Shown: positions 10,916-25,155 of the stretch, in pieces
Numbering within the stretch: position 1 is the first letter of the stretch
How the letters are laid out: every line of letters begins with the position of its first letter
Assembly (NCBI GenBank): GCA_021163455.1
Contig: JAGGWT010000027.1
Coordinates: 1-27,445, forward strand
Direction of reading: 5' to 3'
From: Thermoplasmata archaeon
GTDB taxonomy: Archaea; Thermoplasmatota; E2; DHVEG-1; B18-G2
DNA length: 27,445 nt
Notes under the pieces: generated by a model
Database searches by the model: none
The model's input: only the letters and a program-made list of their open reading frames with translations
What the model was told of the DNA's origin: nothing
Translations under genes and position numbers: made by a program

Positions 10916-12655
10916 TCAACCCTCCTCGACCACCTCATATTTCGGCTTTTCTCCGCACTTCCTGCGGAGTTCATCAATCTCTTTCTTGAGTTCTACCATT
11001 CGTAGCTCTCTATCAATGGTCAGATTATAAAATCTTTCAAGTTCCTCTATTTTCTCCTTCAGTTCCTTTTCCATTCTTTTTCTCTCACTTACATCTCTAA
11101 TAATGGCTACAGCATGCCATCTGTCTTTCATCCTGAATGCACCAACCGATAACTCCACTGGAAATTCTTCACCATTTTTTCTCAATGCAGTCACCTCTGT
11201 GGTTTTCCCGATAACTTGTCCCTTGCCACTTCTTCTAAATAGATCAAATCCTCTCCTGTAATCATCATGGTATCTTTTTGGTGCGCAGAGAAGATGGATA
11301 TCTTTACCTATTATCTCCTCAGCTTTATAACCAAATATCTTTTCAGCCTGCTTGTTCCAGAATATCACTCTACTCTCATCATCCATCATAACTATTGCAT
11401 CCTTTGCATGCTCAGCAATGGACTTGAAAATCTCTATATTTTCTCTCAGTTTACATTCCAATCTCTTGCGTTCCGAGATGTCATAGTATAACTCTACACA
11501 CCCTCCCGCATAAAGTCCCGTGCTAACTGGTTGACATTTGTACTCGAGCCATCTTTCTTCCCTGTTTTTCCCGGGCAAGACATGACATTCAAAGCTATCC
11601 ATCTTAAGATCGGTATCCATTGATAAAAGAACCCTCCTTTCGAACTCATCCGGATTTTCGAAAACGAATTTGATCTTTTCTCTGACAATTTCCTCCTTTT
11701 TCTTTCCAATGACCTCCTCCTTTTTAATACCGAAATAATTCTCAAGAGTATCGTTCATCCATACTACACGAGAGTCCTTATCAAGCAGGAAGAACCCAAC
11801 CTCCACAGCATTCATCACATCATCAGCTATAGATCTAAACTTTTCTTCAGATTCTCTCAATTTCCTTTCAGCCTCTATACGTTCTGTCACATCATGGTCA
11901 GCTCCTCTGTAACCAAGAAATTCTCCATCATCCGATAATATTGGCACACCATTTGTTTCTACTATTATGACTCTACCATCCTTGTGCATGAGTTTATTTA
12001 AAAAATTACGAAAGGGTTCTTTCTTTGAGAAAATCTCAAAAGCTTTCTTTCTCAAAATCTCCCTTTCTTCCGGAATGAAAAAATCATAGAAAAACTTGCC
12101 AATAACCTCCTCAGGCTTATAGCCAAGGATTTTCTCTACCACAGGGTTGGAATAGATATATCTCCCTTCTCTGTCAATCTCCCAGACCCACTCGCCGACG
12201 TGCGCCGCGATATCCTCGAACCTCTTTTTCTCTTCCCTTAATTTTTCTTCGAGTATTTTTCTATCCGTGATATCTCTGAAATGCTCAATAACTGCAACCA
12301 CATTATCCTTTCTGTCGGTAACCGGACACAGAAATACCTCAAACCACTCCTTTCTCCTCTCTTCCAGTTGTAATATAAGATGTTTGGATGATTTCGTTTC
12401 TATTATTTCTCTGAGGGGACATTCCGGGCATGCAGAACTTCTGCCACGAAGAACCTCATAACATTTCTTTCCCTTTACATCCTTTCCGTACCGGTTTTCT
12501 ATCCACTTGTTTGCCATTAATATATTGTTATCGAGATCCAAAATTGCCAGTCCTTCATGGCATCCTTCCATAATTGTGCGAACTATTTCTTTGTGGAGAG
12601 AGTCCTCTCCCAATTTGTCCCCATCTTCTACAAACGCATATTCTCTATCCCACAT
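10916..12655 (-). CDS. Cytoplasmic four-PAS/PAC protein with a C-terminal coiled coil and no kinase domain
   Basis: Four PAS/PAC units ending RDIT, HDVT, YDIS and RDVS; tail LERFYNLTIDRELRMVELKKEI. ATG 12655 with GGAGG RBS preferred over 12676. Confidence 0.88.
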   Translation of the reverse strand: MWDREYAFVEDGDKLGEDSLHKEIVRTIMEGCHEGLAILDLDNNILMANKWIENRYGKDVKGKKCYEVLRGRSSACPECPLREIIETKSSKHLILQLEERRKEWFEVFLCPVTDRKDNVVAVIEHFRDITDRKILEEKLREEKKRFEDIAAHVGEWVWEIDREGRYIYSNPVVEKILGYKPEEVIGKFFYDFFIPEEREILRKKAFEIFSKKEPFRNFLNKLMHKDGRVIIVETNGVPILSDDGEFLGYRGADHDVTERIEAERKLRESEEKFRSIADDVMNAVEVGFFLLDKDSRVVWMNDTLENYFGIKKEEVIGKKKEEIVREKIKFVFENPDEFERRVLLSMDTDLKMDSFECHVLPGKNREERWLEYKCQPVSTGLYAGGCVELYYDISERKRLECKLRENIEIFKSIAEHAKDAIVMMDDESRVIFWNKQAEKIFGYKAEEIIGKDIHLLCAPKRYHDDYRRGFDLFRRSGKGQVIGKTTEVTALRKNGEEFPVELSVGAFRMKDRWHAVAIIRDVSERKRMEKELKEKIEELERFYNLTIDRELRMVELKKEIDELRRKCGEKPKYEVVEEG

Positions 12656-13656: not shown

Positions 13657-15765
13657 TCACTCTATAACAACTCTGCTTACCCCTTCCTCATCTTCATATA
13701 CTGTGATAGCGTTTGTTACCATCTGTTTAATCTCATCTATATGTGTTATTATAAAAATCTGCTTGAATCTGTTGGATAGGGCATTCAGTGCATTCAGTAT
13801 GTTCCTGCGCCTGTTTATATCTTGGGAGCCAAAAATTTCATCGAGAATGATAAAGTTGAACTCTCCGCCCGCTCTATCTGCAAGCATCTGGGATATTGCA
13901 AGTCTTATGCAGAGGTTTGCAAGATCCTCTTCTCCTCCCGAAAATCTGCCTATCTCATAGGGTGTACCACCATCATATATCAGTATGTCATAGTTTTCGT
14001 TCAGTTCGAGTTCACTGTACTTTCCATCTGTAAGACCTTCCAGCAAACTGGATGCATACGCAGATAGAGTCGGTCTGATTCTCGATATCATGTCTATCCT
14101 GAACTCTCCCATCAGTTTTTCAAGAGTATTCAGCATGGAGAGTTTATCTTCCTCTTCCGATATTCTTCTTTTTATCTCTCTTATCTCTTCAACTCTCGCT
14201 CTCAATTCCTCTATTTTTTGTTTCAAAAGATTGAGTTCACCAAATATCTCTTTTATTTCTTCCTTTACTCCATCAACCTCTATCTGTTTTTTCCTTACTC
14301 TTTCGACGGCAAGTTTGTATCTCTCGTAATATTCCTTGACTTCTTTTTCCAGATTCCTGTAAACAGTTTCATCAAATTTTATCTCACCAAGCAGAGCAAT
14401 TTCCTTTTCTTTGATTTCAATCTCCTTTTCTTCCTTCTCTATCTCTCTGATCATGGAGTGGATCATGCCTTCTATCCTTCTCAGGGCCATTTTCTTTTTC
14501 AGGATGTACTCTCTTCTTCTGGACAGAGCCTCTTCCAGTTTTCTTTCCCTGCTCAGATCCTGTTCCAGATTCCTCAACCTCACTTCAATCTCAGATAGCA
14601 TATCAACCTTTTCCTTTATCTCCCTGTCAAACTTTTCTATCAGCCTCGAGTAATGCTCTCCCAAAACTCTCTCGCAAGTCGGGCATGTTGCTGACGGACC
14701 GAGAGATTCTATCTTTTTCTTGCGATCCTCTATTTTTCTTTTCTCTCTTTCTACAGCGTTCATATTTGTTCTTTCCTTTTCCATCTCGGTGAGAACATCT
14801 GATATCTTCATTCTCAACTTCTCGAGTTTTTTCTCAACATCCACAAATTCTTCTTCTACCTCTCCCATCTTGCTCTTTTCTCTCTCCTTTTCGAGAAGAT
14901 TCTGCCTCCTTTCCTTAAGAGACATCTTCAGCCTGAGAATTTCTCTCTCCAGATTTGCCTTTCTATCGAACAGTTCCTTTTTCTTCCTTTCCTCATCCAG
15001 CTTGCGCTGCAGAGATTCATATTCTTTTTCGATTCTATCTTTTTCCTTCTCCAGCATCTCCAGCTCCTTTGAGAGAACACCAAGATGATTTTTCTTTTCG
15101 GATATCCTCCTTTTTACCCTCTCCATCTCCTCAGAATTTTTCTTTATCTCTCTGAGGAAAACCTCCTCCTTATCCTCACCCGTTCTTTCATCCTTTAGAG
15201 AAATTCTCATATGTTGCAGAATATCTTGCGTCCTCCTTATATCAGCCCTTATGTTCTTTATCGCCTTGTCAATGGCATCTATTCCAAGCATTCTCATTAT
15301 GAGTTGTTTTCTTTCGCTTGCACTCATTGTAGAGAGCGCGTTGAGTTCCTTCTGTTTCGCAAAGACAGATGTAAAGAAAGTCTTTGCATCCATACCAAAG
15401 AGATTTTGGATGAATTTCGTCGTCGCCTCCGCCCCGCTAGCCACTGGACGGTTGTTGATGTAAGCGTAAGCGGATGGAGACAGATTTTTTCCGATCATCT
15501 CCCTGATGACCTTTATGTTATTTTGATTGAATACAAAATCAACTTCCACTCTGCACCTCTCTGTGGGGAGAGCTTTATCTCTTTTGATTTTATCAGATGA
15601 TGTCCTTGCTGCAACATGTCCATACAAAGCCCATGCAAAAGCCTCAAATATGGTCGATTTTCCAACACCATTCAATCCGAATATTCCGACAACTCCCTCT
15701 GGGAATTTTATTTCAACGTTCTTGAATTTCCTGAAATTCTGCATCTTTATCGATTTGAGAATCAT
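13657..15765 (-). CDS. rad50: Rad50/SbcC-type SMC-family ATPase
   Basis: Walker A GLNGVGKST, zinc hook CPTC, signature FSGGE, Walker B IILDE, H-loop ITH; ATGA overlap with mre11. Confidence 0.92.
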   Translation of the reverse strand: MILKSIKMQNFRKFKNVEIKFPEGVVGIFGLNGVGKSTIFEAFAWALYGHVAARTSSDKIKRDKALPTERCRVEVDFVFNQNNIKVIREMIGKNLSPSAYAYINNRPVASGAEATTKFIQNLFGMDAKTFFTSVFAKQKELNALSTMSASERKQLIMRMLGIDAIDKAIKNIRADIRRTQDILQHMRISLKDERTGEDKEEVFLREIKKNSEEMERVKRRISEKKNHLGVLSKELEMLEKEKDRIEKEYESLQRKLDEERKKKELFDRKANLEREILRLKMSLKERRQNLLEKEREKSKMGEVEEEFVDVEKKLEKLRMKISDVLTEMEKERTNMNAVEREKRKIEDRKKKIESLGPSATCPTCERVLGEHYSRLIEKFDREIKEKVDMLSEIEVRLRNLEQDLSRERKLEEALSRRREYILKKKMALRRIEGMIHSMIREIEKEEKEIEIKEKEIALLGEIKFDETVYRNLEKEVKEYYERYKLAVERVRKKQIEVDGVKEEIKEIFGELNLLKQKIEELRARVEEIREIKRRISEEEDKLSMLNTLEKLMGEFRIDMISRIRPTLSAYASSLLEGLTDGKYSELELNENYDILIYDGGTPYEIGRFSGGEEDLANLCIRLAISQMLADRAGGEFNFIILDEIFGSQDINRRRNILNALNALSNRFKQIFIITHIDEIKQMVTNAITVYEDEEGVSRVVIE

Positions 15766-16907
15766 GTATCCTCTCCCTCAGCCTCCTGCAGGTATTTCTT
15801 TCCAAGAGCGAGAAATTCCTTTTTATCTTTTAAATTCCTCTTGTCTATAAATTTTTCAAATTCCGTCAGGATATCGGATATCACAACTTCCGATGAAATC
15901 ACCTGATCAACTGTTTTACCTGCGGAGTGTCTGACTTCAAAGTGCATTGCTTTTGAGAACATGGAAGATATAGAGGACATATCTAGGGATTTGTAAACCG
16001 AGGGGTCAATATTGATAAGAAGCAATCTTACTATGCAGCCAGTAAAATCTCTGCCGGCAATCGAATCTTTTATAGTGTTCAAAATCTCTCTAGGTTTCAA
16101 ATCTTTACAGTCAATGGGACCAATCTCCAGCATTTTTCTTGTGGGTATCTGAACAAACTCTGTTGTTACAGATTTGGAGAGCTCTACAATCACGAAACCC
16201 TTCTCCTCGTTTATCTCATTGAAACTCATCTTCTCTGTAGAGCCAGAGTAAACGATGTTATTTCTTATTCTGGTAAATCCATGGTAATGACCCAGAGCCA
16301 CATAGTCAAAGCCCTTTGTTATCGTGGACAAGGGAATGATATACTCGTTTATCTCTCCCATCTTGAATACCTCTACACTCTGTACTGCTCCGTGGGTCAC
16401 CAGGATGTTGAAATCCGCCGAAGGGTCAGGTAAAGCAGATTCCAGTGACTCCATAAATTCATCCCTATCTCTGCAGTGAGGTACGGTGTGGATGGCGATA
16501 CTCTTGCCCTTAATTTCCAGATTTATTCTCTCAGCTTTGTTGTATATGGGGTATACATTTTCCAGATGTTCAAACAGTTTGAAGATATGCCCTGTACCTT
16601 TGAGCTTGGGTGTCTCGTGATTTCCCGCTATTATTATTGTCGGAATCCCCATCTTTGATAATCTGAGAATCTGCTCCAGAGCAACGCTAATTGCTCGATT
16701 TGTCGGTCTCACGTTATCAAAGAGGTCTCCAGCATGGATTACAATATCTGGCCTGATGTCAACTATACGATTCACGGTTTCAACAAACGCTTTGTAAATA
16801 TCTTTTTCTCTCAAATTAATGCCATCACTATCTATCTTCCTGTAGGCAGAATACCCCAGGTGAGTATCAGCAAAATGCACAATTCTGATCTCACTTTCTT
16901 CTTTCAT
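15762..16907 (-). CDS. mre11: Mre11/SbcD metallophosphoesterase nuclease
   Basis: HFADTHLG, AGDLFD, AGNHE, THG and LGHYH motifs. Confidence 0.92.
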   Translation of the reverse strand: MKEESEIRIVHFADTHLGYSAYRKIDSDGINLREKDIYKAFVETVNRIVDIRPDIVIHAGDLFDNVRPTNRAISVALEQILRLSKMGIPTIIIAGNHETPKLKGTGHIFKLFEHLENVYPIYNKAERINLEIKGKSIAIHTVPHCRDRDEFMESLESALPDPSADFNILVTHGAVQSVEVFKMGEINEYIIPLSTITKGFDYVALGHYHGFTRIRNNIVYSGSTEKMSFNEINEEKGFVIVELSKSVTTEFVQIPTRKMLEIGPIDCKDLKPREILNTIKDSIAGRDFTGCIVRLLLINIDPSVYKSLDMSSISSMFSKAMHFEVRHSAGKTVDQVISSEVVISDILTEFEKFIDKRNLKDKKEFLALGKKYLQEAEGEDT

Positions 16908-18243
16908 ACCTATACCTTACAACATTTGCTGCAAGGATCATTGGATCGAGGGTAGGTGCTATAGGAGGTGCATAGGATGTTTCAAGTTGTACAAAATCAT
17001 CGATTTTCATTCCGTTAACAATGGCGCAGGCAAGAGTGTTGATTCTCATCGCACTTCCTTCTCCAACTGCCTGGGAGGACACTATCCTTCCATCACCATC
17101 AACAGCGATTTTAACAGTCACATCCTTCCCGCCTGGGAAATAGTGAGGCAGATTCTTACCAGTGTATTTGCCGTGAACAATGTTTTCACCAAGCTCTTTG
17201 AGTAGAGGTCCTACCGCCGCTATCTCCACACCAAAGATTCTGGTTGTTCTCGTCTGAATAAATCCGGGAGGAAGACTTGCGTTACCTCCGGCAGCATTTA
17301 TGCCTGCTGTTATCCCCTGTCTGACCCCTATACTACCCAGACCAACAGGGAAGTGTTTTCCCGTAAGCAGATCTATATACTCTGTACAGTCTCCTGCGGC
17401 ATAGACATCCTTCACGCTCGTCATGCATCTATTGTCTACCACTATCCCTCCTTTTTCTCCTATTTTACAGCCGATTTTTCTACCAATGTCCACATTTGGC
17501 TTAATTCCAGTAGCTAGTATAACCATATCTGTTTCTATCCTTCTTTCCTCCCCTTCCTTTTCTATAACAATACCATCCACCTCATTTTCTCCTGTTATTT
17601 TTTTAACCCTGTGACCTGTGAGTATCTCCACTTTATCCTTTATGGCATCGAGTACAATCCTCGATATATCCTCATCCACCATTGAAGGAAGTATTTGGGG
17701 AAAGATTTCTACGACCCTGACCCTCTTCCCTTTTTCATGGAAAGCCTCAGCAAGTTCGAGACCTATCAGACCGGCGCCTATTATCGAGACATCATCAACC
17801 TTATCAAGATACTCTTTGATACCCTTGGCATCATCCAGAGTTCTCAACGAGAAGACACCCTTTTTCAAACCATCTCCATTGCGTACTCCTTCTATCGGAG
17901 GTACAGACGAATTTGCGCCGGTAGCGATAACGAGAGCATCATAACTTTTCTCTATCTGCTCCCCATCTTTCTCTGCGATGATGACTTTTTTCTCTGTATC
18001 GATCTCTGTCACAGTTGTTTCAAGATGTAGCTCTATTCCTGCTTTTTCGAACCACTCTTTGGAAAACTCTATGACATCTTTGACCTTACCGGAGATGAAG
18101 TAAGGAAGTGCGCACTTGGAGTACTGTGGATATTTCTCTCTCTCAAAAATGGTAACACTCGCTTTTCTATCTGTCTTCTTGGCAAACTGCGCCGCCGTCC
18201 CTCCTGCTGCTCCACCACCTATAATAACTATCCTTCTTTCCAT
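16891..18243 (-). CDS. CoA-disulfide reductase / NADH oxidase family flavoprotein
   Basis: IIGGGAAG, single redox Cys in YSKCALPY, IIGAGLIGLE, YAAGDC and SYAPP. ATG 18243, or TTG 18255. Confidence 0.88.
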   Translation of the reverse strand: MERRIVIIGGGAAGGTAAQFAKKTDRKASVTIFEREKYPQYSKCALPYFISGKVKDVIEFSKEWFEKAGIELHLETTVTEIDTEKKVIIAEKDGEQIEKSYDALVIATGANSSVPPIEGVRNGDGLKKGVFSLRTLDDAKGIKEYLDKVDDVSIIGAGLIGLELAEAFHEKGKRVRVVEIFPQILPSMVDEDISRIVLDAIKDKVEILTGHRVKKITGENEVDGIVIEKEGEERRIETDMVILATGIKPNVDIGRKIGCKIGEKGGIVVDNRCMTSVKDVYAAGDCTEYIDLLTGKHFPVGLGSIGVRQGITAGINAAGGNASLPPGFIQTRTTRIFGVEIAAVGPLLKELGENIVHGKYTGKNLPHYFPGGKDVTVKIAVDGDGRIVSSQAVGEGSAMRINTLACAIVNGMKIDDFVQLETSYAPPIAPTLDPMILAANVVRYRYERRK

Positions 18244-18284
18244 CAAAATCGCCAAGAAGTAAAAAATGAAATGGGTATAAAGAT

Positions 18285-19037
18285 TTATTCTTTCTCAGAT
18301 TCCTCTGATTTTTCCTCCTCTGGAACTTCTTCCTTTTCCTCCGCTTTTTCCTCGGTTTCAGACTTCTCTTCTTCTTTCTTTTCTTCCTTTGGAGTCTCTT
18401 TTTCCTCTTTCTTAACTTCCTCCTCTGCGGTCTCCTCGGGAACGGGTCTCTTCAAAAGTTCGGTTTTGTATATCTCGACTCTTCTGAGATGATAGAGCTT
18501 CTTACACGCTTTGGATATCTCCTTGGGAAGCTCATCTTCCATTATGCCTTTGATAAGTTCATCCAGAGTCCTTTCTCTGGCATATGACTCGATAACTTCC
18601 CTCATCATCTCCCTTAATCTGTGCTTTAGAGAGGTCTGTATTCTCTTATCAGTTGTTGCAAGCGGTTTTATCCTTATTACGGCACCGTCTCTGGTTGTGA
18701 CATCAAACACACCGTCTATTTTTGACCTCCTTCTCCTCACCAGCCTTCTGACATAATCGTTCGTCATGGAATGTCCTATAAAGTATGTATGAGCATCGGT
18801 CCCATCAACGTTATCTATCTTGAAGTAGAGCTTTATGTGCGATTTCCTGAAATCACCCGTAAGGTCTTGGAGAGAGACCTCAGCAACTCTGTTTATGAGC
18901 AGTTCCTGACTCGCTGCGGGGGTTTCTGCTATCACAACGTTGTTGAATAGAGATGGCGCTAACACTCTGTACCAGACCTTTGCTTTCCATTTATCCTTGA
19001 TCTTTCTCGCGGCTACCCTTGCCTTTGCTTTTGCCAT
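18285..19037 (-). CDS. rps3ae: 30S ribosomal protein eS1 (S3Ae) with a long acidic tail
   Basis: KIKDKWKAKVWY, LINRVAEVSLQDLTGD, IKLYFKI, DYVRRLVRRRRSKID and RRVEIYK. RBS AGGTGG before ATG 19037. Confidence 0.95.
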   Translation of the reverse strand: MAKAKARVAARKIKDKWKAKVWYRVLAPSLFNNVVIAETPAASQELLINRVAEVSLQDLTGDFRKSHIKLYFKIDNVDGTDAHTYFIGHSMTNDYVRRLVRRRRSKIDGVFDVTTRDGAVIRIKPLATTDKRIQTSLKHRLREMMREVIESYARERTLDELIKGIMEDELPKEISKACKKLYHLRRVEIYKTELLKRPVPEETAEEEVKKEEKETPKEEKKEEEKSETEEKAEEKEEVPEEEKSEESEKE

Positions 19038-19072
19038 GTTGAACCACCTGGAGGTGGTAATATGATATATGA

Positions 19073-19083
19073 TACTTAAATTT
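19073..19083 (-). promoter_or_regulatory. TATA box of rps3ae
   Basis: Minus-strand AAATTTAAGTA; implies a transcription start near 19049-19050. Confidence 0.55.
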
Positions 19084-19098
19084 ATATGGTAGTGAGGT

Positions 19099-19112
19099 AA
19101 AAAGAGAAGAAA
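19099..19112 (-). terminator. Pyrimidine/U-tract terminator of the H/ACA RNA
   Basis: TTTCTTCTCTTTTT begins 3 nt after the final ACA box. Confidence 0.6.
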
Positions 19113-19254
19113 GATTGTCGGATGCCAGGGTATCCTCCTCATCATTTGGGGACACCCAGTCCCCTTCATCTGGGAGGGACCCCTGCTGGCATCCCTGTCG
19201 CCTTGCGCTTGCACCTCTGATCATCGAATCACAGAGGCCTTCGATACAAGGCAT
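19113..19254 (-). ncRNA. Box H/ACA pseudouridylation guide sRNA with two hairpins
   Basis: Hairpin 1: GCCUUG/CAAGGC lower stem, pocket, GCCUCUG/CAGAGGU upper stem, K-loop (UGA-UUCGAU-GAU), then G-ACA at 19198-19196. Hairpin 2: GGAUGCCAG/CUGGCAUCC, pocket, CCUCC/GGAGG, K-turn (AUGA with AUGAUGA), apical GGGGAC/GUCCCC, then G-ACA at 19118-19116. Pocket-to-ACA spacings are 14 and 15 nt. Ends are approximate. Confidence 0.85.
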
Positions 19255-19275
19255 TAATCTATTGATTTTCACGAT

Positions 19276-19290
19276 TGATTAAATTTACGG
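19276..19290 (-). promoter_or_regulatory. BRE-TATA promoter of the H/ACA RNA
   Basis: Minus-strand CCGTAAA-TTTAATCA, about 25-30 nt upstream of hairpin 1. Confidence 0.55.
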
Positions 19291-19310
19291 TGCCATTTTT
19301 GCAACATTTC

Positions 19311-19680
19311 TCATCTATCCACAGCTAACTTCTTAACATCTATATCAAATCTCCACACAGAATATCCTCTCGTTCCGGCGAATAGTAAACCATTGAACTC
19401 CTTCATGTCATAGAAAATGAACATCAACAAAGTCTTCCTGATTTATGATTTTCCAGCTTTTTCCACCATCTTCGCTCCGCCACACGCCGCCGAAGCCGTG
19501 CGAGACAAACATCACACCTTTGCTGGTTGAAAAGATAAAATGCATGTCTCCTCCGTCCATGCCTTCCAGCTGTTCCCATTCTCCATAAACCACAACATAT
19601 GTTCTCTGGACACATCCTGAGAGAAGAGAAAACATCATTATACCTGCAAACAGTGCAGGTAAGACCCATGCACTCTTATC
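19311..19680 (-). pseudogene. Remnant of a lipoprotein with BNR/Asp-box beta-propeller blades (frameshifted, probably internally deleted)
   Basis: Lipobox LLSGC, Asp-box WRSEDGGKSW. A frameshift at the T4 run (19414-19417) joins ...DVHF to YDMKEFNGLLFAGTRGYSVWRFDIDVKKLAVDR* (19412-19311). Confidence 0.7.
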
Positions 19681-19768: not shown

Positions 19769-19841
19769 GCCGGCGTAGCTCAGCTGGTAGAGCGGGTGAC
19801 TCGTAATCACCAGGTCGAGGGTTCAAATCCCTCCGCCGGCT
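19769..19841 (+). tRNA. tRNA-Thr(CGU), no intron, CCA not encoded
   Basis: Acceptor GCCGGCG/CGCCGGC, D arm GCTC/GAGC, anticodon arm GGTGA-CTCGTAA-TCACC (CGT at 19802-19804), T arm GAGGG-TTCAAAT-CCCTC, discriminator U. Confidence 0.97.
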
Positions 19842-19844
19842 CTG

Positions 19845-21128
19845 TTAATGATAAGGCTCTTTTGCTGGATGAAGATCGACGTTTATCCATGGAAGCTCTA
19901 TTGCATAGAACGGAGTTACAGGGATGCGCATCTTTCCGGAGATAATCTTTGGACCCGAAGAGTGACCACTCCAGTAATTTCCAATCCATCGGTTGAATGA
20001 GAGAACCGGTGTGCAGAAACTTGCATCCACGCCATTGTCGATAAAGTTATTCTTCTGTATCACATTACCCCTGCATTTTGTTGCAAGGAATGAGCCAAGA
20101 TACAGACCAAAATCGGTGTTAAGGGATATGTTATTTCTGTACACTGTGTTTTTCACTCCTTCCACCGATATTCCGATTTTGCTGTGAACAATGCTATTTT
20201 CTGATATGTTGTTACCCTGCGACCAACCCTTAACAATACATATCCCGCACCATCCTCCACACTCTTCTATGTCATTCTGTGAAATTCTATTGAAGGAGCC
20301 ACCCTGCACACTTATGCCAAAAGAACCTCCCTGTGTGATTGTATTTTCAAAAACGATATTGTAATCAGAGTATGGAGCAAGAAGAATTCCTCCGGTGTTA
20401 TCATGCAGTGTATTTAGTGAGATGTTGTTATGGGATGCAGACCATAGAGAGATGGCAATATCTGATAACGTTATCTGGTTATTCGAGATGGTCACATTCT
20501 GACAACCATCCAGAGATATTCCGCATCCCTCAAACTCCGAGATGTTGCCCGCATATTTAGAAAAGACACCGCTGGTAATATTTGAGATTGTACAATCCGA
20601 GACCATCATATCATGGGACTGAGCAAGCACAATACCAGAAAATCCATCCAGAAAATCACATCCTGAAATAATGCTATTGTATGATGAAAATGCAAACAAA
20701 CCGCAGTCGTTGTTCTCGAAGTTACAGTCATGAATGTTCAGATTCTCCACCTCATATGTAACGATACCTGCATGTGGGTATGAGCCACCTGTTATGGTGA
20801 ATTGCGATATCTCAACATTATTTGCTGTAACATTTATCGCATATCCGAAGGCGGCGGCGATTATTGTGCTATCTCTGCTTTCTCCTATCAGTTTTATCTG
20901 CTTGCTTACCAGGACACTCTCATTATATACTCCGCTGTATACAAAAATAGTATCTCCATCTGCTGCATCATCTACAGCTTGCTGTATGCTGCTGTAATTT
21001 CCTTCACCACTTCCTCCGACATACAGCACTCTACCCTTGCCGTAAAGATATAATCCGTTTGTTGGAACAACAGCAACCACAATCAACATGAGGAAGACAG
21101 AAACAGGCAACATCATCTTTCCTCTCAT
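19845..21128 (-). CDS. Secreted right-handed parallel beta-helix (NosD/CASH) protein
   Basis: Signal peptide, VLYVGGSGEGNYSSIQQAVDDAADGDTIFVYSGVYNE, repeated I-S/T-x-N-x-I beta-helix turns, C-terminal GNYW...PWINVDLHPAKEPY. Confidence 0.85.
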   Translation of the reverse strand: MRGKMMLPVSVFLMLIVVAVVPTNGLYLYGKGRVLYVGGSGEGNYSSIQQAVDDAADGDTIFVYSGVYNESVLVSKQIKLIGESRDSTIIAAAFGYAINVTANNVEISQFTITGGSYPHAGIVTYEVENLNIHDCNFENNDCGLFAFSSYNSIISGCDFLDGFSGIVLAQSHDMMVSDCTISNITSGVFSKYAGNISEFEGCGISLDGCQNVTISNNQITLSDIAISLWSASHNNISLNTLHDNTGGILLAPYSDYNIVFENTITQGGSFGISVQGGSFNRISQNDIEECGGWCGICIVKGWSQGNNISENSIVHSKIGISVEGVKNTVYRNNISLNTDFGLYLGSFLATKCRGNVIQKNNFIDNGVDASFCTPVLSFNRWIGNYWSGHSSGPKIISGKMRIPVTPFYAIELPWINVDLHPAKEPYH

Positions 21129-21203
21129 ATTCTACCTCCATTGATGGCTGCGCCGCCTGCAGCAGCTACCTTTCCGGTGATTAATATTTCAACATTTATT
21201 TAT

Positions 21204-23273
21204 TTACTTTTTTCTTTTTATATTATTTATGAGAATAACCGCAAGAATGATGCACGCGAAAATCCAGGGTACATCCAGACCCGGTGTTTTCTTTTCCTCA
21301 CTGATGGTTACAGAGGTGGAATTCATGCTCACCTTTCCACCGTTATCTACAACAGTCAGAGTGACCATGTATGTACCAGCCCTCTTGTAAGTGTGGGTCA
21401 CAATCTTTCCCTCGGCTGTGCTGCCATCACCAAAATCCCAGATATAGCTTATTATTTCTCCATCCGGGTCATAGCTGGAGGAACCATCAAACGTGATTTC
21501 TTCATTTGCCTTCCCTTTGTATGGTCCACCGGGATCAGAGATGGGCGCCACATTGACCTCTTCTTCCATTACTATGGCATACGTCTTTGCAATGTTGCTG
21601 GTGCCGTTGTTGTCTATGACTGTTAAAGTTACCGTATAATTACCTGCTTTTGTGTATGTATGCGTCGGGTTTTCCGCGAGAATTTCTCCACTTCCGTCAC
21701 CAAAATCCCATCTGTAGAATTTTATCTCTCCATCCGGGTCGTATGATTTTGAACCATCAAACTGTATGGGCATACCAACAAATCCCTGATAAGGTCCACC
21801 CGGGTCTGAGACCGGCTTATCATTTGTCGGAGGTATGGGTACAGTATTGAATACCCATATATCAGATACATTTTCCAGCTTCGAATCGTTGACCACAACA
21901 TACCACGCCATCACCGTATCATACGGGAGATGAAGAGTGCAAGATGCTATCCCACCATTCGGTATATCGTGCCTCTCTGCAAGGAGGTAATTATCGCTTG
22001 CTCTGTAGAAATAGACAGATAGTTTATCACTATCCGGATCAGTAACCTTTACCTGAAGAACAGGGGATAGACCAACATTGGATTCCCCATCCTTGGGTGA
22101 GATAACTTCCGGCTTGTTTGGAGGTTTGAGGAAATTTCCGGTTGGGTATCTATCTGTACCGCCGCCCTGTATGTTGTAAGGATAATCTCCTATGCCATCA
22201 TGATTTCTGTCCACATCGTTATAATCGTCCCAGTAGTTGCCCACCTCTCCATTGTCCCACATATTCTTCCCATTACCCTTTGCATGGTTGCTGTTTTTGA
22301 GAAACCTGTTTTTGTAAATCATGTTGTTTTCACAATCTGTGGAGCTCGCATCTATTGCATACAGCATGGAGTTTGTAAACAGATTATCAAGAATGGTATT
22401 GTTGTTTCCGTGCAGAACCAGAGCGATATCATTACCATCGAATGTGTTATTCCTTACGGTGCAGTCTATTCCGTTGAGATTCAATCCGGTGGGATTCTGG
22501 GAAAAGGTATTCCTGTAAATCGTGCTGTTGTCAACATTGTAAAGATTTATACCAGCAACATTGTTGTGTTTCATGGTATTGTTGGTTATGTTGAAACCGG
22601 TGCAGCTCTGAACGTAAATACCATACTGATTGTAAAGGAGAGTGTTTCCATAAACGATGCCATTCTGCGAGTTAAAGAACTTTATTCCCGCAACGGTACA
22701 GTTTGTTATGTTATTATTCGTGAAGGCATCATTTACGGATGATGTTACATAGATTCCCTTACCTCCTCTTATAACATTCTCACCTATGGTATCCCCATCA
22801 GAGGAATCTAGGTATATGGCCCAGATGTCACCTGTTACATTTATGAAATTTCCCTGAATGATAATATTATCAGATTTAACATAAACTGCGGCAACATAGC
22901 AGCCCTTTGCTGCTTTTATTGTAAAATCTTCGATTGTAACAAAATCCGCTATCACTTCTATTGTGTATCTGTGACTGTCGTTCTTCCATATAGTTGTGTT
23001 TTCTTTACTCAGACCCTGGAGAGTGATCTCCTTATCAATAAGAAGGGTTTCATTATAAATGCCCGGGAAGACGTATATCGAATCTCCATCCTCTGCATTG
23101 TCTATTGCCTGCTGTATGGATGTGTAAGGGTGTTCCACGCTACCGTCTCCATCGCTGTACGGGTAAGATACATCAACATAAATATCTCTTGCATGGCCTG
23201 ACATCGCTATGAAAAGAACAAATAAACCGATTGCAAGACCAGATACCAAATATACCGCTCTTCTCACCACCAT
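21204..23273 (-). CDS. Surface protein: NosD/CASH beta-helix, Ig-like linker, two PKD domains, PGF-CTERM-like anchor
   Basis: GDGSVEHPYTSIQQAID, GNYWDDY, two P.SDPGGPY..FDGS.SYDPDGEI..Y.WDFGDG PKD repeats, and C-terminal TPGLD-hydrophobic-KRKK. Confidence 0.87.
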   Translation of the reverse strand: MVVRRAVYLVSGLAIGLFVLFIAMSGHARDIYVDVSYPYSDGDGSVEHPYTSIQQAIDNAEDGDSIYVFPGIYNETLLIDKEITLQGLSKENTTIWKNDSHRYTIEVIADFVTIEDFTIKAAKGCYVAAVYVKSDNIIIQGNFINVTGDIWAIYLDSSDGDTIGENVIRGGKGIYVTSSVNDAFTNNNITNCTVAGIKFFNSQNGIVYGNTLLYNQYGIYVQSCTGFNITNNTMKHNNVAGINLYNVDNSTIYRNTFSQNPTGLNLNGIDCTVRNNTFDGNDIALVLHGNNNTILDNLFTNSMLYAIDASSTDCENNMIYKNRFLKNSNHAKGNGKNMWDNGEVGNYWDDYNDVDRNHDGIGDYPYNIQGGGTDRYPTGNFLKPPNKPEVISPKDGESNVGLSPVLQVKVTDPDSDKLSVYFYRASDNYLLAERHDIPNGGIASCTLHLPYDTVMAWYVVVNDSKLENVSDIWVFNTVPIPPTNDKPVSDPGGPYQGFVGMPIQFDGSKSYDPDGEIKFYRWDFGDGSGEILAENPTHTYTKAGNYTVTLTVIDNNGTSNIAKTYAIVMEEEVNVAPISDPGGPYKGKANEEITFDGSSSYDPDGEIISYIWDFGDGSTAEGKIVTHTYKRAGTYMVTLTVVDNGGKVSMNSTSVTISEEKKTPGLDVPWIFACIILAVILINNIKRKK

Positions 23274-24153: not shown

Positions 24154-25155
24154 TCAGAGACTCCAGTACTTCTTCAGTATCTTTTTAAGCTCGTCTATCC
24201 TGTCCCTTGCATAAATCAATTCCTCCACTTTTTCTCTGTAATTGAACTCTTCACCATGCATTGCATATATCTCAGAGAGTACAAGTACACCGAGTTTGCT
24301 GAGATTGTATCCCCCCTCCAATGAGCATACAATTTTGGGCTGAACAGATCTGAGCTTTTCTATAATTCTGTAAAAACTCTCTGCCGATAACCTGAGACCT
24401 CCAAGCGCATCCTGATAGTGAGAATCGAAACCGGAGGATACTATGATTAAGTCCGGCTTGAACTGCTCAGCCACAGGTAGAAAAATTTCATCCATAGCAT
24501 CCATGATGGTCTTATCTCCGGCACCCCTTGGTAAAGGCAGATTTATGGTGTACCCTTCTCCCCCATCTCTACCGACCTCATCGATGTCTCCGGTTCCGGG
24601 GTAATGTGGGGATAGATGAAACGATTGATACATCACTCTATCACTCTCATAGAAAATGTCCTGGGTTCCATTTCCGTGATGGACATCATGGTCAAAAATC
24701 AACACCTTCTTGTTTTCCTTTGATATGATGTGGGCTGCCAGGGCAACGTTGTTAATCAGGCAGAATCCCATCGACCTGTTTCTGGTTGCATGGTGTCCCG
24801 GAGGTCTAACCAGAGCAAAACCAGCATCGAATTCTCCAGATAACACCTCGGATGCCAGCATAACGACCCCGCCGGCTGCAAGCCTTGCTATCTCATAGGA
24901 GCCGGGACACACGTATGTATCCATATCCACCCATCCACCGGTTTCGCTTAATCTTTTTACATTCTCTACCATCTCTTTTGAGTGGATCTCCAGAATCTTC
25001 TCTTCATCCGCTGGCTCGGGAGAAACTATCTTTATCTTCTCGAAAATCTCGGACTTTTTCAGGTCACGCATTATGGATATTAACCTCTCGGAGTTTTCTG
25101 GATGGTTGAAGTTATCATGCTCCAGGAATTTATCCGAATAAACCACCGAAATCAT
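24154..25155 (-). CDS. Zn-dependent histone deacetylase/AcuC family hydrolase
   Basis: HPE, RPPGHHA, GFC, DHDVHHGNGTQ, GFDSH..D and LEGGY. Confidence 0.93.
   Translation of the reverse strand: MISVVYSDKFLEHDNFNHPENSERLISIMRDLKKSEIFEKIKIVSPEPADEEKILEIHSKEMVENVKRLSETGGWVDMDTYVCPGSYEIARLAAGGVVMLASEVLSGEFDAGFALVRPPGHHATRNRSMGFCLINNVALAAHIISKENKKVLIFDHDVHHGNGTQDIFYESDRVMYQSFHLSPHYPGTGDIDEVGRDGGEGYTINLPLPRGAGDKTIMDAMDEIFLPVAEQFKPDLIIVSSGFDSHYQDALGGLRLSAESFYRIIEKLRSVQPKIVCSLEGGYNLSKLGVLVLSEIYAMHGEEFNYREKVEELIYARDRIDELKKILKKYWSL

Follow-up and report, generated by a model that had tools for sequence, protein, structure and literature searches.

A two-hairpin box H/ACA guide sRNA of canonical form is very probably encoded on the minus strand of the window (the whole 27,445-nt stretch of Thermoplasmata DNA analysed here), at positions 19116-19252. 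We identify it as an HgcG-type ortholog whose first hairpin would guide pseudouridylation of 23S rRNA at the position equivalent to E. coli 2496. The assignment draws on the anatomy of the RNA, on covariation and conservation among its homologs, on complementarity to the 23S rRNA of relatives, and on homology to known guides. Neither the modification site nor the guide family is new to archaea, and the RNA reveals no new mechanism. What is new is an unannotated two-hairpin variant of Pab40/HgcG in an order and a class where it had not been catalogued.

Anatomy of the first hairpin

The complete sRNA (19116..19252, minus strand) is ~137 nt long, as delimited by its sequence, its fold, and full-length homologs. 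Its G+C content is 58%, compared with 42% for the window. The ViennaRNA (RNAfold) structure of positions 19110-19256 has an energy of -63.8 kcal/mol (z = -3.8) and consists of two hairpins that both contain an internal loop; none of 200 shuffled sequences folded as well.

Hairpin 1 occupies 19196..19252 on the minus strand and comprises a lower stem, a pseudouridylation pocket, an upper stem, a K-loop, and an ACA box. From its 5' end, the first strand of the lower stem (GCCUUG, starting at 19252) leads into the 5' pocket strand UAUCGAAG (19239..19246), the partner of 23S CUUCGAUG (E. coli 2498-2505). The two strands of the upper stem, GCCUCUG on the 5' side and CAGAGGU on the 3' side, enclose the K-loop UGAUUCGAUGAU (19220..19231), which is recognized by sequence and conservation and is the presumed binding site of L7Ae. 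The 3' pocket strand GCAAGCG (19206..19212) follows, of which GCAAGC pairs with 23S GCUUGC (E. coli 2490-2495). The hairpin then closes with the 3' strand of the lower stem (CAAGGC), a single G, and the ACA box (19196..19198), 14 nt 3' of the pocket-closing base pair. The pocket strands and coordinates that a first-pass annotation had given for this hairpin match the minus strand exactly, from 19252 to 19196.

In productive archaeal H/ACA motifs, the GA stem, counted from the closing pair up to the second G.A, comprises 10 stacked layers, and the ACA box lies 14-15 nt away from the pair that closes the pocket (PMC4652768). In hairpin 1, the K-loop contributes a U.U and tandem sheared G.A/A.G pairs that stack on the 7-bp upper stem, and we counted 10 layers in total (7 bp + U.U + G.A + A.G). 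The spacing to the ACA box is likewise that of a productive motif, with GCAAGCG (7), CAAGGC (6), and G (1) adding up to 14 nt. For membership in the H/ACA class, we looked for an ACA or ANA box 14-15 nt (up to 16) from the closing pair and for a lower stem of 7-9 bp. The lower stem of hairpin 1 has six Watson-Crick pairs, or seven if the U.G of the minimum-energy fold is added, which puts it at the bottom of the canonical range of 7-9 bp or below it. The overall stem-pocket-stem-K-loop layout is that of an H/ACA motif and is backed by both the fold and covariation.

Covariation and conservation

BLAST recovered the full two-hairpin RNA from all seven other genomes of the host's family and from two more distant genomes. 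Among nine aligned sequences of hairpin 1, double (compensatory) changes were present in 6 of 13 base pairs, and 98% of cells were paired. With 42 aligned homologs, double changes were present in 9 of the 13 pairs and 93% of cells were paired; when partners were slid in the same alignment as a control, only 21-49% of cells were paired. The stems vary across the 42 homologs while the guide cores stay nearly fixed. The 3' guide core GCAA is invariant (42/42), and the 5' guide core reads CGAAG in 40 homologs and AGAAG in the other two. The K-loop pattern UGA...UGAU is kept throughout, and the box is ACA in 39 homologs and AAA in three.

We built a covariance model on hairpin 1 (R1), which scores 85.6 bits at the window hairpin. 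Within the host's order, it matched exactly one copy each in 104 of 118 genomes, including 42 of the 43 that are of high quality. It also matched in two further families of the class (10/11 and 19/19 genomes), and it found nothing in three other families (0/24 genomes), in which the guide has either been lost or diverged past the reach of the model. Across the class, the hairpin 1 guide was present in four of the seven families sampled, and in nearly every genome of each.

Predicted target in 23S rRNA

In relatives of the same order, the predicted target GCUUGC-UA-CUUCGAUG occurs once per genome, in LSU rRNA. The target 16-mer, GCTTGCTACTTCGATG, was present in exactly one copy in each of about 13 same-order genomes, the segment being identical in all of them, and its location in LSU rRNA was confirmed at the four loci that were checked. 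At the target, same-order 23S rRNA reads GGCUUGCUACUUCGAUGUCG, which is the archaeal sequence that the first-pass annotation had given. A 41-nt gap-free alignment to E. coli rrlH identifies the unpaired U as position 2496, a C in E. coli itself, and the next residue as A2497, in agreement with where that annotation had placed the modified U. Position 2496 adjoins the peptidyl-transferase ring at the base of helix 89.

The bipartite complementarity around an unpaired U-A that is expected of an H/ACA guide was found with the 23S rRNA of these same-order relatives. In a rule-based scan of the 23S and 16S rRNAs of one relative, the 2496 site ranked first, with 14 contiguous pairs (6 + 8), of which 13 are Watson-Crick and one is G.U. 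The runner-up sites reached 8 contiguous pairs in 23S and 6 in 16S, and only 4 of 5000 shuffled guides reached at least 14 pairs. All 42 homologs hold 9-15 bp to the 2496 site, and several of the homolog-bearing genomes carry both guide and target. The host's genus and one sister genus pair with the order-wide target over the greatest length (6 + 8 bp).

Under the established model of the H/ACA RNP, the PUA domain of Cbf5 would hold the ACA box and lower stem of hairpin 1, L7Ae would bind the K-loop, and Nop10 (and Gar1) would complete the particle. The GCAAGC strand would then pair with 23S GCUUGC (2490-2495) and UAUCGAAG with CUUCGAUG (2498-2505), leaving U2496-A2497 unpaired. Lying ~14-15 nt from the ACA box, the unpaired U would enter the active site of Cbf5 and be isomerised to pseudouridine. 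For the host lineage, we predict that the target string at the base of helix 89 is GCUUGCUACUUCGAU, carrying over the 23S sequence of another family of the order.

Many computed H/ACA targets fail as predictions and are not modified in vivo (PMC2377435, PMC11077068), and single archaeal H/ACA hairpins guide 2-8 sites (PMC11077068). Hairpin 1 could accordingly be a real H/ACA motif whose productive target or targets differ from the U at 2496 or extend beyond it, with the pocket serving other sites in rRNA, tRNA, or sRNA. The host MAG comes without a 23S gene, and a few sites in its genome score similarly, but these are rich in G.U and need several such pairs. Compared with the 14 contiguous pairs at 2496, the next-best rRNA site in the relative offers 8. 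More than 100 genomes share fixed guide cores, and the guide tracks position 2499 between classes. Moreover, the orthologous motif 1 of Pab40 is experimentally specific for the 2496 site. We therefore consider a different or additional target unlikely and retain 23S position 2496 as the predicted target of hairpin 1.

Second hairpin and flanking signals

Hairpin 2 (19116..19195, minus strand) follows directly after hairpin 1 and is homologous to motif 2 of HgcG/Pab40. Its lower stem is formed by GGAUGCCAG and CUGGCAUCC, its pocket strands are CAGGGGUC and AUACC, and its upper stem (CCUCC/GGAGG) is accompanied by a K-turn-like AUGAUGA. The RNA ends in the ACA box of this hairpin (19116-19118, minus strand; terminal GACA), which reads AAA or AUA in some relatives. 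In the host family, the 3' pocket strand AUACC is one nucleotide shorter than ACAACC.

Canonical target scans for hairpin 2, run with three choices of pocket boundary against the 16S and 23S rRNAs of a relative, yielded no convincing site. One apparent site was rejected, as it falls inside a group I intron of that relative's 23S gene. Such an intron (Rfam RF00028, 77 bits) interrupts the 23S gene of the same-order relative G021 at L042:3113-3326. Muller et al. argue that motif 2 of Pab40/Afu4/Pf7 really acts on the counterpart of P. abyssi 2678 (PMC2377435), which is E. coli U2586. The corresponding segment, GGGUU-U-A-GACC, is found in relatives, and hairpin 2 pairs with it over just ~4-5 + 4 bp. 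By homology with motif 2, E. coli U2586 is a weak candidate for the target of hairpin 2.

Upstream of the sRNA, a putative archaeal promoter was read by eye in the BRE/TATA-like element CCGTAAATTTAAT (19278..19290, minus strand), ~26-38 nt before the start of hairpin 1. Nearly all of the 42 homologs have an A-rich element followed by TTAAT/ATATTAA at the same upstream distance (~26-38 nt), and this conserved element suggests that the sRNA has a promoter of its own. Just past the ACA box of hairpin 2, a pyrimidine/T-rich tract ending in T5 (19099..19114, minus strand) is likely the terminator, judging from sequence alone. Neither sequence nor fold revealed a third hairpin after hairpin 2; the T-rich tract stands there instead.

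Neighboring genes

The T-rich tract is followed by a TATA-like promoter and then by the ATG, at 19037, of rps3Ae, which encodes ribosomal protein S3Ae/eS1 (250 codons; 18285..19037, minus strand; Pfam Ribosomal_S3Ae, E 1.9e-70). With the hairpins directly upstream of rps3Ae on the same strand, they could conceivably be no guide RNA at all, and instead a chance structure, an rps3Ae 5' leader or attenuator, or part of a longer rps3Ae coding region. A GTG-started ORF of 309 codons (18285-19214, minus strand) does run through the sRNA. However, the Pfam match covers residues 10-198 counted from the ATG at 19037, and it follows that the longer, GTG-started ORF is spurious; the Pfam domain and this ATG mark the real gene. 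Linkage of rps3Ae to the sRNA was seen at 2 of 30 loci, kept only in the closest relative, yet the RNA itself is conserved, and on this synteny we rejected a role as leader or attenuator. The explanation is also at odds with the homology to HgcG, with the K-loop and the spacing of the ACA box, and with the compensatory stem changes; it is effectively refuted, and we give it hardly any credence. Annotations that use the long rps3Ae ORF would hide the guide sRNA.

Several other genes of the window were noted. A tRNA-Thr(CGU) gene (19769-19842, plus strand; 73.6 bits in Rfam) lies on the other strand, ~500 nt away from the sRNA. On the minus strand are two adjacent genes for surface-type proteins of the NosD/right-handed beta-helix kind (19845-23273), the second with C-terminal PKD domains, a histone-deacetylase-family gene (24154-25155), a pyridine-nucleotide disulphide oxidoreductase gene (16891-18255), and a Mre11/Rad50-like pair (13657-16907).

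Ribosomal RNA and H/ACA proteins in the host lineage

The host MAG spans 1.10 Mb in 146 contigs. An Rfam search of it returned no LSU or SSU, and BLAST with the rRNAs of a relative returned no 23S. The only rRNA piece that BLAST found is a fragment of 500 nt from the 5' part of 16S, with which contig C49 ends (11809-12308). An exact 26-mer from this fragment had no match in the metagenome collection, and the 23S of the lineage was not recovered in this way. The Rfam LSU model also found no 23S in any of 8 genomes (the host and seven relatives of its family). A 23S search in five other families of the class gave no match, probably because the gene was not assembled.

Compared with the 16S of a same-order relative, the fragment shows just 79% identity; its G+C content is 64%, on a contig that otherwise has 43%. 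The occurrence of G+C-rich structural RNAs (sRNA and 16S) in an AT-rich genome suggests a thermophilic lineage. Taken with the 14-bp guide of the host, the 58% G+C of the sRNA and the 64% G+C of the 16S fragment hint at a thermophilic lineage with a reinforced duplex.

Among the protein components of the RNP, L7Ae and Nop10 (57 aa, next to aIF2-alpha) are encoded in the host MAG. Nop10 is not known to act outside H/ACA RNPs. Cbf5 was not found in the host MAG, which is 86% complete, and it was found in six of the seven family genomes; in a congener, the protein has a DKCLD-TruB_N-TruB_C-PUA architecture. The Pfam Gar1 model had no match in 8 of 8 family genomes, and the same model also misses a control archaeon.

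These searches bear on the question of whether the guide might be conserved but non-productive in this family, either with a 23S that has diverged at the site or with an incomplete RNP that lacks Cbf5 or Gar1. That no 23S was found in any of the 8 family genomes would be compatible with this, as would the negative results for Cbf5 in the host MAG and for Gar1 in the family. However, the longest complementarity (6 + 8 bp) occurs in the host's own genus and its sister genus, which would be hard to explain without selection. All 23S sequences recovered from the order (about 13 genomes) have the identical target segment, Nop10 is present, Cbf5 is found in six of seven family genomes, and the host MAG is just 86% complete. 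We judge a non-productive guide to be very unlikely and favor a functional one, with assembly of the RNP and pseudouridylation of the host 23S both expected.

Orthology to HgcG/Pab40 and the equivalent site in eukaryotes

The position that hairpin 1 would guide can be placed in other archaea by numbering. We take the E. coli positions of RluE, RluC, and RluB to be 2457, 2580, and 2605. The pseudouridines that these three enzymes make in E. coli are formed in P. abyssi by Pab35, whose confirmed 23S sites include 2549, 2672, and 2697 (PMC2377435). The resulting offset of 92 makes P. abyssi 2588 equivalent to E. coli 2496, an equivalence that rests on the numbering offset and on a check against HgcG of Thermococci. 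Pseudouridine at P. abyssi 2588 is formed by motif 1 of Pab40, as Muller et al. 2008 established by a positive CMCT signal and strong in vitro activity; they describe the site as one that eukaryotes share (PMC2377435). Pab40 corresponds to HgcG in Rfam (RF00064; PMC4652768), and the HgcG-type family covers Thermococcales, Archaeoglobus, and Methanococcales.

The RF00064 model had no match in the window at its gathering score (77 bits), nor at E <= 10 in 18950-19400. Across that interval, Rfam as a whole returned nothing above chance level even at E <= 10; a trypanosomatid H/ACA family scored 15 bits. In a Thermococci MAG, RF00064 matched over all 276 model positions with 62.9 bits (E 6.5e-17), which is under the 77-bit cut-off. 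R1 recognized motif 1 of this Thermococci HgcG match with 41.7 bits (E 4e-11), and the two window hairpins align to its motifs 1 and 2. Hairpin 2 and the Thermococci motif 2 have the residues GGGUCCCUCC and GGAGGA.A.CC in common, with the conserved pattern GGGUCCCUCC ... GGAGGA(U/C)A(A)CC. By this comparison, the window sRNA is the order's ortholog of motifs 1 and 2 of HgcG/Pab40/Pf7/Afu4.

The pocket of the Thermococci motif 1, UCGAGG + GCAAG, fits the 23S of its own genome, which reads GCUUGC-UA-CCUCGA. In the host's order, the guide UCGAAG matches CUUCGA, and in Thermococci, UCGAGG matches CCUCGA. Read from these sequences, a change at E. coli position 2499 between the classes is matched by a change in the guide, and this provides independent evidence for selection on the pairing.

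The same position can be followed into yeast. We take yeast 2921 to be the equivalent of E. coli Um2552, which corresponds to an offset of 369. In the literature, the yeast 2921 site is flagged only as conserved in E. coli. The anchor of yeast 2826 to E. coli 2457, as stated in PMC11077068, yields the offset of 369 as well. Since anchors at this offset bracket the site, yeast 2865 is E. coli 2496. Yeast 25S Psi2865 is guided by snR46, lies in the PTC, and is conserved in human (PMC5699541, PMC8307265). The first-pass annotation had equated this yeast pseudouridine with E. coli 2496 and had proposed that a PTC site shared with eukaryotes is guided in archaea. Both points are borne out, the first by the offset at both anchors and the second by Pab40 motif 1, which forms Psi2588 and to which the window sRNA is orthologous. 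What that annotation missed is that archaeal guiding of the 2496 site had already been established with Pab40.

Wider reading

This analysis adds an order-wide H/ACA sRNA to genomes in which Rfam finds none, and it removes a spurious N-terminal extension from the gene model of rps3Ae. The phyletic range of the Pab40/HgcG guide, and of the pseudouridine predicted in helix 89 (E. coli 2496, yeast 2865), now takes in the class represented by the window. This supports the ancient origin that Muller et al. 2008 had already proposed for a few of the pseudouridines close to the PTC. On the broadest reading, Thermococci and much of the window's class have a core of motif 1 plus motif 2 in common, present as a single copy in about 90% of the order. 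It is an even call whether the HgcG/Pab40-type RNA is far older and wider than Rfam records, making it a candidate for a guide-target pair that dates from an early archaeal ancestor. If this were true, an ancestral guide would have tracked the C/U change at 23S position 2499, and the site of motif 1 is one that is also pseudouridylated in eukaryotes.

Comparison with known systems

As a structural yardstick for hairpin 1, we used the single-hairpin H/ACA sRNAs of the Pf9 and Afu46 type, for which crystal structures are available (PDB 2HVY, 3HAX, and 3LWO, as cited in PMC4652768). Hairpin 1 shares with them the order of stem, pocket, stem, K-loop, and ACA box, the 10-layer GA stem, and the 14-15 nt between ACA and pocket. 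In contrast, their guide sequence and their target are different, and the comparison is limited to structure.

The eukaryotic counterpart of the site is served by yeast snR46 and its human equivalent, which by offset (2865 - 369 = 2496) act at the same rRNA position with the same chemistry. The yeast RNA also has in common with the window sRNA the Cbf5/dyskerin-Nop10-Gar1 enzyme core and the logic of a bipartite pocket. In contrast, eukaryotic snoRNAs have a hairpin-H box-hairpin-ACA layout, are devoid of a K-turn or K-loop, and use Nhp2 in place of L7Ae. The similarity between snR46 and the window guide is one of site and mechanism.

The nearest known system is Pab40/HgcG, from which the window sRNA differs in several respects. 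It has two hairpins, whereas HgcG has three consecutive H/ACA motifs, and it is the third motif, guiding P. abyssi U2016 in domain IV, that is missing. Opposite position 2499, its guide has an A where that of HgcG has a G, in keeping with the U2499 of the order, and the Rfam HgcG model is blind to the RNA even at E <= 10. Nevertheless, hairpin 1 and motif 1 of Pab40/Pf7/Pho40/Afu4 address the same target U (P. abyssi U2588, E. coli 2496). The two share the 3' guide core GCAAG, and their 5' guides differ only where the targets do. They also have the same K-loop and ACA geometry, and with hairpin 2 aligning to motif 2, the order of the motifs is kept as well.
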